DNA from: Rhynchobatus australiae
Taxonomy: Eukaryota
Reading direction: 5' to 3'
NCBI GenBank assembly: GCA_034780895.1
Contig: JAUZTB010000048.1
Coordinates: 16,167,615-16,231,381, forward strand
DNA length: 63,767 nt
The notes below the pieces were generated by a model. The model was not told the DNA's origin. It did not search any database and saw only the letters and a program-made list of their open reading frames with translations. The position numbers were made by a program, and so were the translations under genes. Position 1 is the first letter of the stretch; each line of letters starts with the position of its first letter. This document shows positions 52,686 through 56,470 of the stretch, piece after piece.

Positions 52686-55600
52686 GATTATCGTACAAAA
52701 CCATTTTGCTGCAGCGCTTGTCCATTTGCATCCAAATTTTTTTCTGCCTACAAAAGCCATTTCAGAAATGTTCATAGTGAAGATTTTGAAAACAAAATCC
52801 TGATTAATTGCCCTTATTGCCCATACAATGCTGACAGAAAGACCCTGGAGACCCATATCAAGATATTTCATGTCCCTCTTTGGAAAGTACCTAGTGGAGG
52901 CAAGAATGCACACCATGAAAAGTCAAAGCAGGATAGCAATCTTAAACTGAAACATGCTGACAGTGTGGAACAAGCAGTCTATTACTGTAAGAAGTGTACT
53001 TACCGAGATCCGCTTTATGATGTTGTCAGAAAGCATATTTACAGGGAACATTTTCAGCATGTGGCAGCCCCTTATGTGGCAAGAACAGGAGACAAATCAG
53101 TGAATGGAACATTTTCTGCCACTAATGGAAGAGAGGATGGGACTGTGCATTGTAAACGTTGTCTCTTCATACCCAAAACTTATGAAGCCTTGGTGCAGCA
53201 TGTTATTGAAGACCATGAAAGAATAGGGTACCAAGTAACAGCAATGATAGGACATACTAATGTGNNNNNNNNNNNNNNNNNNNNNNNNNNNNNNNNNNNN
53301 NNNNNNNNNNATGACAAGCCCTTAGCTGCTGGAAATTATCAGAGTGTGAAAAGTTCAATGCAGCAGAATATGAATCGTGTATCTATGTCCAAAAACACAC
53401 AGAATTCTGCTGTCAATCTTATGTCGGGTAGTAGTCGTCTGCCACCAAAATATGCTGTTTCATCAATGGCACATAACTATTCTTTGGGTCAACAAATGAG
53501 GCTCCCTCTGCCAGGTGGTTTACCAGTTCCTCTTCAGCAGCGATCACAAACCGTAAAACAATTAATATCTGGTGGCAATGGACGGCAGTATGGAGTTGGT
53601 GCTGGTGAACAGAGGCGACCATCACAGATGCAATATAACGTTCAATCAGGAAGCTTGACTGGTAATAGTGGATCCAGTCAATTATCAATGAAACAGTCAC
53701 AATTCAGTATTTCTCAAGCACAAAGGATGCAAGGATTATCTACTTCATCAGTAAAGTCATTAGCTTCCCCAACAGGCCTAAGTAATTCTGCTAGCCAGAG
53801 TCCTGCATTGGCTGGGTCTGCTGCTCAGAAGTGGAAGATTTGCACAATGTGTAATGAGCTTTTCCCAGAAAGTGTGTACAGCATACACTTTGAAAAGGAG
53901 CATAAAGCTGAGAAGATCCAGGCTGTAGCTAATTACATTCAGAAGATCAATAGTTTCACAAGCAAATGTCTCTACTGTAACCGTTATTTACCAAGTGAAA
54001 CGCTGCTCAACCACATGCTTATACATGGACTCTCGTGTCCCTACTGCCGTTCCACTTTCAATGATGTTGAAAAGATGGCTGAACATGTAAGAATCCTTCA
54101 TATTGATGAAGAAGTGGGACCCAAGACTGAATCAACGTTAACTTTTGATTTGTCTACACAGAAAGGTAGCCGCAGTAATATACAGCTCCATGTTACTACA
54201 TACAGTACCTCTGAGAGTGCCTCTGTGGAGAATACAAATTATCGGCCCCAGAATCAGAACTTGGCATTTAGAAAGCCAGAAGGGCAGTTGCAGCAGCCGA
54301 AACCACAAGTCAAATCTAAAATAAAGCCAGATTTGAATTCTATACCTCAAACCCAAATACCCTATAAAAATGATGTTGGCAAAACCCTTTGTCCGTTGTG
54401 CTTCTCTATTTTGAAGGGCCCAATATCTGATGCTTTGGCACACCATTTGAGGGAACGACATCAGGTGATACAAACAATTCATCCAGTGGAAAAAAAGCTT
54501 ACCTATAAATGCATTCATTGTTTGGGAGTCTACACAAGTAACATGACAGCCTCTACCATAACGTTGCATCTGGTGCACTGTAGAGGTGTTGGAAAAGCAC
54601 AGAATGGCCAGGATCGAAGTCTTGCTCATGCCAAGGTAACACACTCACCAAGTGTAATGCCCATGAAACGAGAATATGAGTATGAATATGGGGACTTTGC
54701 TTTAATGAAAAAAAGGAAATTGGATGGTGAGGAAACTGTTCAGAGCTTTACCTTGGGAGAGGATAAACCAGAGGAGCCTGTAGTTTTAGCTATTGATCCC
54801 AAGGGGTATGAGGATGAGTCCTATGAGGCCAGAAAAATGTTCCTTACAAACTATTTTAACAAGCAACCTTACCCAAGCAGAAGGGAAATTGAAAAGTTGG
54901 CAGCTGGCTTATGGTTATGGAAATCGGATATTGCTTCCCACTTTAGCAATAAGAGGAAGAAATGTGTTCGAGATTGTGAGAGGTACAGGCCAAAGGTATT
55001 GCTTGGATTTAATATGATGGAGATGCGAAAAGTAAAGCACAATATGGACTTTGGGCCTACTTGGAATTTGCTAAATAACAAAGAAATAGATGGCAAGGAA
55101 CCTGCTACTTTAAAATCAAGCATGGAAAAAGTAAATCAGAAACTGGAGAAAGAAAGAAGAGATTTGAGTCTGGGATCAGAAAAATTGGAGGGAACTATTT
55201 TAGATTTGAGCTCCCAAATGGAGGAAAATTCAAATCCAAACTTGGGAAAGATGAAAGGGAGAGCTGTGAACCCGTGTTCAGAACGAATGGAGGGAACTGC
55301 TTTGGACTTGAGCACTCAGATGGAAGAAAGACCTTCAAACGCCAGCTCTGCAATGGTGGAGGGAACGNNNNNNNNNNNNNNNNNNNNNNNNNNNNNNNNN
55401 NNNNNNNNNNNNNNNNNNNNNNNNNNNNNNNNNNNNNNNNNNNNNNNNNNNNNNNNNNNNNNNNNNNGCCATTAGATTTGAGTGCTCAGATGGTAGAGGA
55501 AAGTCCTTCAATCAAGAGCACTGAGATGGTAGAAGAAAGTCCTTCAAATGTGAGTTCTGAGATGGTGGCAGAGAGTCCTTCAAATGTAAGTTCTGATATG

Positions 55601-56470
55601 GTGGAGGGAAGTGCTTTAGATTTGAGTTCCCAGATGGTGGAGAAAAGCCCTTCAAGCATGAGCGCTGAGATGGTGGAGGAGAGCCCATCTAATATGAGTG
55701 CTGACATGGTGGAAGCAAGCCCTTCAAATACGAGTCCTGATAATATGGAGGAAAATGCTTCAAATACTTGTGGTGGTGAAGATTTGTCATCAAGTGAAAT
55801 GAGTGGTTTGCAGAGTAGGGAAGAAACTTCTGAAATGGTTCCTGAAGAGTTCAATAATGAATTGCAAAAACCTGCATTTACAGAAACTGCATCATTAAAG
55901 GATGATGTTTCAAATATGGATGAAGAGCAGTATCCTGAGCCATCTTCAGAATCGAAAGATAAAGAATCAGAAAGTGAAGATTCAGAAGAACTTTCTGAAT
56001 GCAAAGATGCTGGTTCACCAGCTGAGGACGGACTAGTATCTCCACAAGCATCTGATCAGGAAGATGTTTCGTCTGAGCTGAAGCAAGAGTTTTGGATCAA
56101 ACGACCATGGACAGATGATGTATCCCAAAGTGAAGAGGAGGAAGAGCCCCCTCGGACCTCTGAACCAAAAGCTGCATTGGAAAATGACGAGCAAAATTGG
56201 GGAGAGGGGCCAGGTGAATGGAGTGGAACACCATTCCAAAATGAAGGAGAAAAGTGGGCCAAAGAACGGTCTGAATGGAAGAATGTTTCACCAGAAAATG
56301 AGGAAAGTTTGTCTAATCCGTTGTTAGAATGGCAAGGTAACACAGCAGATAGTGAAGGCGAGGAGCTTGATCAGCTCCTCGATCAGTCAAATGACGGTCT
56401 CTCCGATAATGTGGCAGAACCTGTTTGTGGATCTTCATCAGGTGTTGGGTTAAGTAGTCAACCTGCATAA
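52686..56470 (+). CDS. ADNP: ADNP large terminal coding exon: nine zinc fingers, NLS, homeodomain, PxVxL motif, repeat insert, acidic tail ending GVGLSSQPA* (two N gaps inside)
   Basis: tttcag acceptor, then [14 protein letters not shown]. Zinc fingers run from CCSAC..HFRNVH to CIHC..HLVHC; KKRKLD NLS; homeodomain [55 protein letters not shown] 52674..55475 and ORF 55274..56470 join across the 100-N gap at 55368-55467. Confidence 0.95.
55185..55770 (+). repeat. Coding minisatellite in ADNP, ~36-bp (12-aa) degenerate unit, about 13 visible copies
   Basis: Recurring gagatggt(g/a)g(a/c)(g/a)ga(a/g)agtccttcaaat units; protein units [12 protein letters not shown] and [12 protein letters not shown]. 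Confidence 0.9.

Follow-up and report, generated by a model that had tools for sequence, protein, structure and literature searches.

A tandem-repeat array with four candidate CtBP-binding motifs in the ADNP tail of sharks and rays

The ADNP gene of Rhynchobatus australiae lies complete, in three coding exons, on the plus strand of a 63,767-nucleotide stretch of contig JAUZTB010000048.1 (hereafter the window, to which all positions refer), and its product carries in the C-terminal tail a tandem array of 14 units of 11–12 residues (164 residues in all; 55185..55777, + strand). Four of these units contain xLDLS motifs of the type bound by the co-repressor CtBP, and we consider it rather probable, from the motifs and their conservation, that the array acts as a multivalent docking module for CtBP in shark and ray ADNP. 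Both ADNP and arrays of PxDLS motifs are known kinds of element; their combination in the elasmobranch tail is new. The main interest of the array lies in these motifs and in their apparent convergence with one in spiny-rayed fishes, more than in the repeat itself. The first-pass annotation of this DNA had placed the stress on Ser-Pro (SP) sites and overlooked the xLDLS motifs, which are the best-conserved feature of the array.

All four motifs are encoded on the + strand: ILDLS (motif 1, 55197..55211; VLDLS in all four orthologs), ALDLS (motif 2, 55299..55313), PLDLS, the canonical CtBP-binding motif (motif 3, 55469..55483; present in all five elasmobranch sequences), and a second ALDLS (motif 4, 55613..55627; VLDLS in Scyliorhinus). 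Across the 20 type A units of the five elasmobranch sequences LDLS is unchanged in every case, and the residue preceding it is Ala in nine, Pro in five, Val in five and Ile in one. Expressed as alignment columns, LDLS is invariant at 16/16 positions versus 89/142 in the rest of the array (Fisher p ~0.001, for a comparison chosen post hoc). The four LDLS codon sets of the window differ at synonymous sites only, and among pairs of type B units 58 codon differences are non-synonymous and 48 synonymous. One PLDLS and two ALDLS, with VLDLS in the orthologs, are found in a region predicted to be disordered, and are conserved above their surroundings.

PLDLS, ALDLS and VLDLS are reported as CtBP-binding in EBNA3C and EBNA3A, the non-canonical ALDLS and VLDLS of EBNA3A acting synergistically on CtBP (PMC2883600), and VLDLS binds CtBP in ZBTB18 (PMC9684030). 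The Epstein–Barr virus protein EBNA3A and ZBTB18 therefore offer motif variants identical to those of the array, although in these unrelated proteins the motifs number one or two and are not repeat-derived. A closer likeness in layout is provided by RAI2, whose tandem ALDLS motifs bind CtBP via the central LDL with an affinity of ~5 µM per site, and which stacks CtBP tetramers into filaments (PMC11187106). Like the array, RAI2 has repeated ALDLS-type motifs in a disordered region, with at least two motifs at bridging distance: the start-to-start distance is 26 residues in RAI2, and 32–34, 22–23 and 48 residues between successive motifs in four orthologs. The native RAI2 linker of 21 residues and a shortened one of 10 both support binding and the formation of foci; in the array, the linker between motifs 2 and 3 is 17–18 residues and the others are 27–29 and 43. 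Because 17–18 falls between the two working RAI2 lengths, a RAI2-like stacking of CtBP would be possible on the array, and might even inactivate CtBP. The two systems differ in that the array has four motifs, which arose by minisatellite duplication and stand on a DNA-binding repressor; RAI2 is disordered throughout.

The repeat itself is well defined at the level of DNA. Tandem Repeats Finder recovered 6.7 copies of a 36-bp unit at 55488-55728, with 75% matches, together with a higher-order period of 144 bp at 55472-55760, with 79% matches. Nucleotide identity at a lag of 36, measured 3′ of an assembly gap described below, is 0.72 versus 0.28 ± 0.03 (maximum 0.41) in 2000 codon shuffles. The earlier proposal of a 36-bp coding minisatellite is borne out by these values, and its array of 11–12-residue units stands; the units number 14 and end at 55777, where about 13 units ending at 55770 had been given. 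The array is in frame and comprises four type A units (xEGxxLDLSxQ), eight recognisable type B units, of consensus [16 protein letters not shown], and two very degenerate units at 55218-55286; the first and last B units are also degenerate, and B units share only 76% DNA identity. In a codon-wise comparison of one A with one B unit no codon differed by more than one base, and the two types are therefore taken to descend from a single 36-bp ancestor. The consensus of a further class of CtBP-binding motif is PxNLS. In the most divergent chondrichthyan protein (P0005) the B-like units read PSNLS, one residue off this type, which fits a repeat unit lying close to a CtBP site.

Type B units bearing SP form a run around motif 4 (55490..55777, + strand), with in-register SP sites at 55502, 55538, 55574, 55646, 55682 and 55718; these are the six sites 3′ of the gap that had been counted before, and a seventh SP occurs at 55733. 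With 21% Ser, a net charge of –23 and a predicted lack of structure, the array is well described by the multivalent, acidic, Ser-Pro-rich module of the first-pass annotation. It belongs to no Pfam family, and an AlphaFold model of the Narcine array gave a mean predicted local distance difference test score (pLDDT) of 50.8 and a predicted template modelling score of 0.10, with no residue above pLDDT 70, a low confidence that is in part expected of an alignment of only five sequences. The array is thus predicted to be disordered, as expected of a motif carrier. In line with the first-pass stress on SP sites, the array might instead be mainly an acidic multisite phosphorylation domain or spacer, in which the xLDLS motifs are incidental; the invariance of SPS in 18/21 instances speaks for this, as does P0005, which despite its divergence keeps the SP-unit run but only one ALDLS. 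Such an account, however, leaves unexplained both the position of LDLS as the most conserved block and the PLDLS of acanthomorph fishes (see below), and it is compatible with CtBP docking as a second layer. As a replacement for CtBP docking we consider it quite improbable.

A 100-N placeholder gap interrupts the array at 55368..55467 and shifts the frame by one base; the first-pass annotation had not flagged the placeholder as lying inside the array and shifting the frame. All four elasmobranch orthologs read through this position without extra residues (VEGTPLDLSAQ in Pristiophorus), and the flanks of the gap in the window make exactly this unit when overlapped by one base. Because the four orthologs are continuous here with no additional residues, the gap is almost certainly false, with a true size of about –1 nt, and the length of 1294 residues for ADNP (36+31+894+333) is therefore probably the true one. 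The earlier minimum of ~1290 residues is accordingly best read as close to the full length, and the attribution of most of the excess over mammalian ADNP to the array is confirmed, since the array contributes 164 of the 175 residues by which the tail exceeds that of a named bear ADNP. The possibility of hidden extra units within the gap was rejected, since the orthologs have no extra residues there.

The gap and its frame shift are what might suggest a young, polymorphic variable-number tandem repeat (VNTR) or an assembly artefact, an explanation that we regard as barely conceivable. The array runs without a gap in the Narcine and Scyliorhinus proteins, which come from contigs of 255 and 212 Mb, and likewise in two full-length proteins from contigs of 5.3–5.4 kb. 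The latter contigs are most simply read as spliced transcripts because they are shorter than the 7.8-kb coding span of the window. Assembly duplication, which the first-pass annotation had named as a possible source of error, was rejected on the strength of the chromosome-scale and transcript-like contigs alike, and the splicing-out of the array was rejected since the full-length proteins from the transcript-like contigs contain it. In addition, identity among the units is no more than 76% in DNA, and type B units in the same slot of a ray and a shark are more alike (0.81) than are units within a species (0.69). A species-specific VNTR was rejected because rays and sharks have the array in common, its slots conserved and its units numbering 14 in the former and 15 in the latter; the length polymorphism suggested earlier is unlikely for the same reasons. 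The array resembles coding minisatellites and VNTRs in its in-frame 36-bp unit and 144-bp higher-order block, but differs from polymorphic VNTRs in being degenerate and slot-conserved in sharks and rays, with no sign of ongoing homogenisation.

To place the array among vertebrates, we used 101 ADNP proteins from the best 120 of 433 relatives listed (19 were left out), among them 96 named bony-vertebrate ADNPs; beside the window, chondrichthyans were represented by five cluster representatives standing for 55 member sequences. Tails were scanned for periodicity from an anchor on the homeodomain in 101/101 proteins, with a threshold of z = 5. The array is present, slot for slot, in 4/4 other elasmobranch ADNP clusters, with 14 units in Narcine and in P0002, as in the window, and 15 in both sharks, and the earlier suggestion that orthologs be aligned and their units counted thus separates rays from sharks by one unit. 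P0005, which diverges most within the clade and may on that account be chimaera-like, has a shorter, B-rich array with one ALDLS. None of the 96 named bony-vertebrate ADNPs has the array, in keeping with the earlier statement that mammalian ADNP lacks such a repeat. The claim of lineage specificity therefore holds with respect to bony vertebrates, but the lineage is not a narrow one.

The window array is identical to that of Narcine at 143/161 positions and to those of the sharks at 122–128 of ~160. Between ray and shark, B units in the same slot are 0.81 identical and those in other slots 0.70, compared with 0.69 for units within a species, and the same slot was best or tied in 23/30 ray–shark comparisons. 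Because each slot resembles the same slot of the other lineage more than it does its neighbours, the order of units is judged to have been fixed before the ray/shark split, with little homogenisation since. That split is placed at ~250–300 million years ago. No lamprey, hagfish or ADNP2 sequence was among 16 proteins from a search for longer family members; gain of the array in chondrichthyans is the simpler reading, rather than loss in bony vertebrates. Word-based matching with the array picked out, among 446 candidates, the four elasmobranch ADNP clusters and no others; profile-based searching against 1.84 billion representatives gave 40 matches at E ≤ 0.001, three at ≤ 1e-10 and none at ≤ 1e-30. 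Searches for relatives of the array in the ESM Atlas (best score 0.76) and the PDB (a single match, E 0.27) were uninformative. A literature search, with subscription papers mostly outside its scope, found no description of this array among the titles and abstract openings listed, and no paper treating ADNP, ADNP2 and lamprey together.

The same canonical motif recurs in a second group of fishes. In a motif scan of 107 proteins, PLDLS was found in 13/13 ADNPb tails of acanthomorph teleosts (Polymixia, perciforms, notothenioids, Leuresthes and Nothobranchius; P0077, P0089, P0091, P0094, P0096, P0097, P0102, P0107, P0112, P0113, P0117, P0120 and P0122) and in no other bony-vertebrate tail among the 107; the adnpa proteins P0124-P0126 lack it as well. 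Neither xLDL[ST] nor PxDL[ST] occurs in the named tetrapod, lungfish, coelacanth and non-acanthomorph ray-finned ADNPs tested. By shuffling, the chance of PLDLS per acanthomorph tail is 0.3–0.9%. The motif lies directly before a teleost-wide site of the EPIAIDSDS type, and acanthomorphs are monophyletic at 100/100 in a tree of the ADNP core (30 rows, array excluded, unrooted, with no ADNP2 sequence among the rows). At this position the letters of salmonids, pike and smelt are related to the motif but do not match it, and PLDLS is therefore placed as arising on the acanthomorph branch, in a sequence context unrelated to the shark array. ADNP may thus have acquired CtBP as a new partner twice, in elasmobranchs and in spiny-rayed fishes.

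The neighbouring site deserves mention in its own right. Teleost and frog tails (e.g. P0117, P0114, P0045 and P0064) share a conserved motif resembling a SUMO-interacting motif (SIM), followed by a CK2-type acidic tail; the site reads EPI[AS][ILV]DSDS in teleosts and IILDNSDSE in frogs, and bony-vertebrate ADNP may on this basis bind SUMO. A literature search on ADNP together with a SUMO-interacting motif listed a paper on DAXX and no other. From this site a further explanation for the array can be drawn, namely that the xLDLS units form a poly-SIM, which was amplified from an ancestral SIM-like site in the tail and which phosphorylation of nearby serines would switch. The [VIP]-L-D-L sequence fits the consensus of the hydrophobic SIM core, the SIM-like site with DSDSE occurs in frog tails and widely in those of teleosts, and Ser and acidic residues abound in the array. 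On the other side, 9/20 instances begin with Ala, which suits CtBP and not the SIM core; a pattern demanding an adjacent acidic or Ser run matched 0/5 chondrichthyan tails, yet matched the teleost site; and the acanthomorph PLDLS stands beside the SIM-like site rather than replacing it. We therefore consider a poly-SIM unlikely.

A repeat in the ADNP tail is unsurprising in itself, as two frogs and two teleosts have unrelated ones. Five of the 96 bony-vertebrate tails exceeded the periodicity threshold, of which two were acidic runs and three true unrelated repeats, with units of 13 residues in Hyperolius (P0067), nine in Nanorana (P0064) and five in Alosa (P0076). To these is added the Leuresthes adnpa tail (P0125), where 68 near-identical units of eight residues make a better VNTR candidate than the shark array. 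The region of the array is called unstructured and poorly conserved between paralogues in a preprint on the ChAHP2 complex (bioRxiv 10.1101/2024.02.05.578923), and the description of ADNP as highly constrained does not extend to this tail.

Such tolerance of insertions lends itself to a neutral explanation, in which slippage spread a minisatellite through the tail and the frozen units kept their xLDLS and SP residues through slow chondrichthyan change, with no new partner. It draws further on the A and B units, which differ mostly by single-base codon changes, and on the overall conservation of the array (66% invariant columns), which is like that of its flanks (61% before and 73% after). It accounts poorly for an LDLS retained in 20/20 paralogous units while neighbours vary, for the excess of non-synonymous over synonymous differences between B-unit pairs, and for the separate origin of the same canonical motif in acanthomorphs. 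We regard neutrality as possible but doubtful. Several observations nevertheless weigh against CtBP docking, beginning with the similarity of array and flanks just given. The E and Q of the A unit are invariant in 20/20 units just as LDLS is, and SPS approaches this; the conservation of LDLS may come in part from slow evolution of the tail and shared descent; and neither the five sequences nor the four units are independent, just as the 13 acanthomorphs represent one event. The I-x-L/I-D-x-S-D-S-E form of the frog and teleost SIM-like site resembles A unit 1, whose ILDLS in the window is absent from the CtBP motifs in the available text of the cited papers. CtBP is likewise unmentioned in the accessible part of the ChAHP2 preprint, and a literature search, with most subscription papers and supplements outside its scope, found nothing joining ADNP, CtBP and PXDLS.

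Coding exon 1 of the gene that carries the array (48680..48787, + strand, 36 residues) matches Narcine ADNP at 36/36 residues by tblastn and is followed by a GT donor; exon 2 (51696..51788, + strand, 31 residues) has a tblastn match and AG/GT ends; and the last coding exon (52686..56470, + strand, 894+333 residues) encodes the zinc fingers, homeodomain, PxVxL motif, repeat array and acidic tail. This last exon is 92–93% identical to Narcine ADNP and has matches above cut-offs to Pfam ADNP_N (PF19627; E 4e-216 and 7e-122) and Homeodomain (PF00046; E 4e-7), the zinc-finger and homeodomain combination of an ADNP ortholog. Downstream of the homeodomain, the HP1-binding PxVxL motif PKVLL (54990..55004, + strand) is identical in 5/5 proteins of the chondrichthyan clade. 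Among the matches listed, the nearest named proteins are those of Narcine bancroftii (92% over the searched region), Scyliorhinus canicula (88%) and Pristiophorus japonicus (87%), and in the core tree the window ADNP groups with these three at 100/100 support, closest to Narcine, with moderate support for the ray group (89/97); P0005 falls inside the chondrichthyan clade, its position there unresolved. The window protein is thus like other vertebrate ADNP of the ChAHP complex (CHD4–ADNP–HP1; bioRxiv 10.1101/2024.02.05.578923) in its ADNP_N zinc-finger region, homeodomain, PxVxL motif, three coding exons and unstructured, poorly conserved tail, and unlike it in the tail, which exceeds the usual one by ~175 residues and bears the array of 14 units with its four xLDLS motifs.

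Other features of the gene and its surroundings were noted in passing. The branch dividing chondrichthyans from bony vertebrates in the core tree is long, at 0.53 changes per site (the tree being unrooted, either side may be the accelerated one), and the branches among sharks and rays are very short. The site of the mammalian NAP octapeptide (NAPVSIPQ, as in bear P0008) reads GLPVPLQQ in the window (53517-53540), and the octapeptide is thus not conserved in chondrichthyans. A 46-N gap in the last exon (53265-53310) is sized correctly, 46 N and two bases making the 16 codons of the orthologs. A CpG island at ~23250-24750 (GC ~0.6, CpG observed/expected 0.8–1.0), ~24 kb 5′ of the first coding exon, is probably the ADNP promoter. 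Upstream on the + strand, exons at ~6170-6250, 15291-15407 and 17321-17430 may be those of DPM1, whose motifs they resemble and which is the expected upstream neighbour of ADNP; one of the three matches Glycos_transf_2 weakly (E 1e-4, just under the cut-off). An open reading frame fragment on the – strand (39906-40304) may correspond to the reverse-transcriptase region of a CR1-type long interspersed nuclear element.

Taking CtBP docking as the favoured explanation, the following course of events can be proposed. In chondrichthyans, an old 36-bp coding minisatellite would have spread within the disordered ADNP tail and frozen before the ray/shark split, with four units that read as xLDLS and were held unchanged. 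These would dock CtBP1/2, whose tetramer has four motif-binding sites, so that in sharks and rays the ChAHP complex would recruit CtBP, along with the chromatin enzymes associated with it, to ADNP targets with multivalent avidity. In mouse, according to the ChAHP2 preprint, ADNP reaches DNA and heterochromatin via its zinc fingers and HP1 and binds CHD4 (bioRxiv 10.1101/2024.02.05.578923). The default outcome would be stronger co-repressor recruitment, with the acidic SP units in the role of spacers, perhaps adjustable by phosphorylation; a single PLDLS would have brought acanthomorph ADNPb to CtBP independently. What the sequences show is the array with its age and conservation, and the motifs with their distribution; binding in sharks, the effect on repression and tuning by phosphorylation we infer. 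A more elaborate version, which we regard as possible but doubtful, would cast the minisatellite as a nursery of motifs: with a unit a few single-base changes away from a CtBP site, it would have given rise to four CtBP motifs, with RAI2-style bridging or stacking of CtBP tetramers on chromatin under an SP-phosphorylation switch; together with the independent wiring in acanthomorphs, CtBP would then be a convergent fourth ChAHP subunit, possibly linked to transposon load.

A precedent for such gains exists in the Drosophila piRNA pathway, where chromatin factors of transposon control recurrently gained short CtBP motifs in a lineage-restricted manner (PMC12992792). Turnover there is rapid between fly species and binding has been shown, whereas the elasmobranch motifs are old and fixed and their binding is predicted only. 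Work on ADNP, confined almost entirely to mouse and human, regards it together with CHD4 and HP1 as a fixed module of three parts; should the motifs be functional, fishes would have connected ChAHP to the co-repressor CtBP on two occasions. Natural comparisons are at hand in the adnpb of medaka, stickleback and killifish, expected to have one PLDLS (Nothobranchius has it), and in otophysans such as catfish, which lack it. If the proposal is true, the array would be a clear example of a tandem repeat that generated a multivalent module of short motifs and fixed it over hundreds of millions of years, and would offer a second natural test case for the multivalent polymerisation of CtBP.

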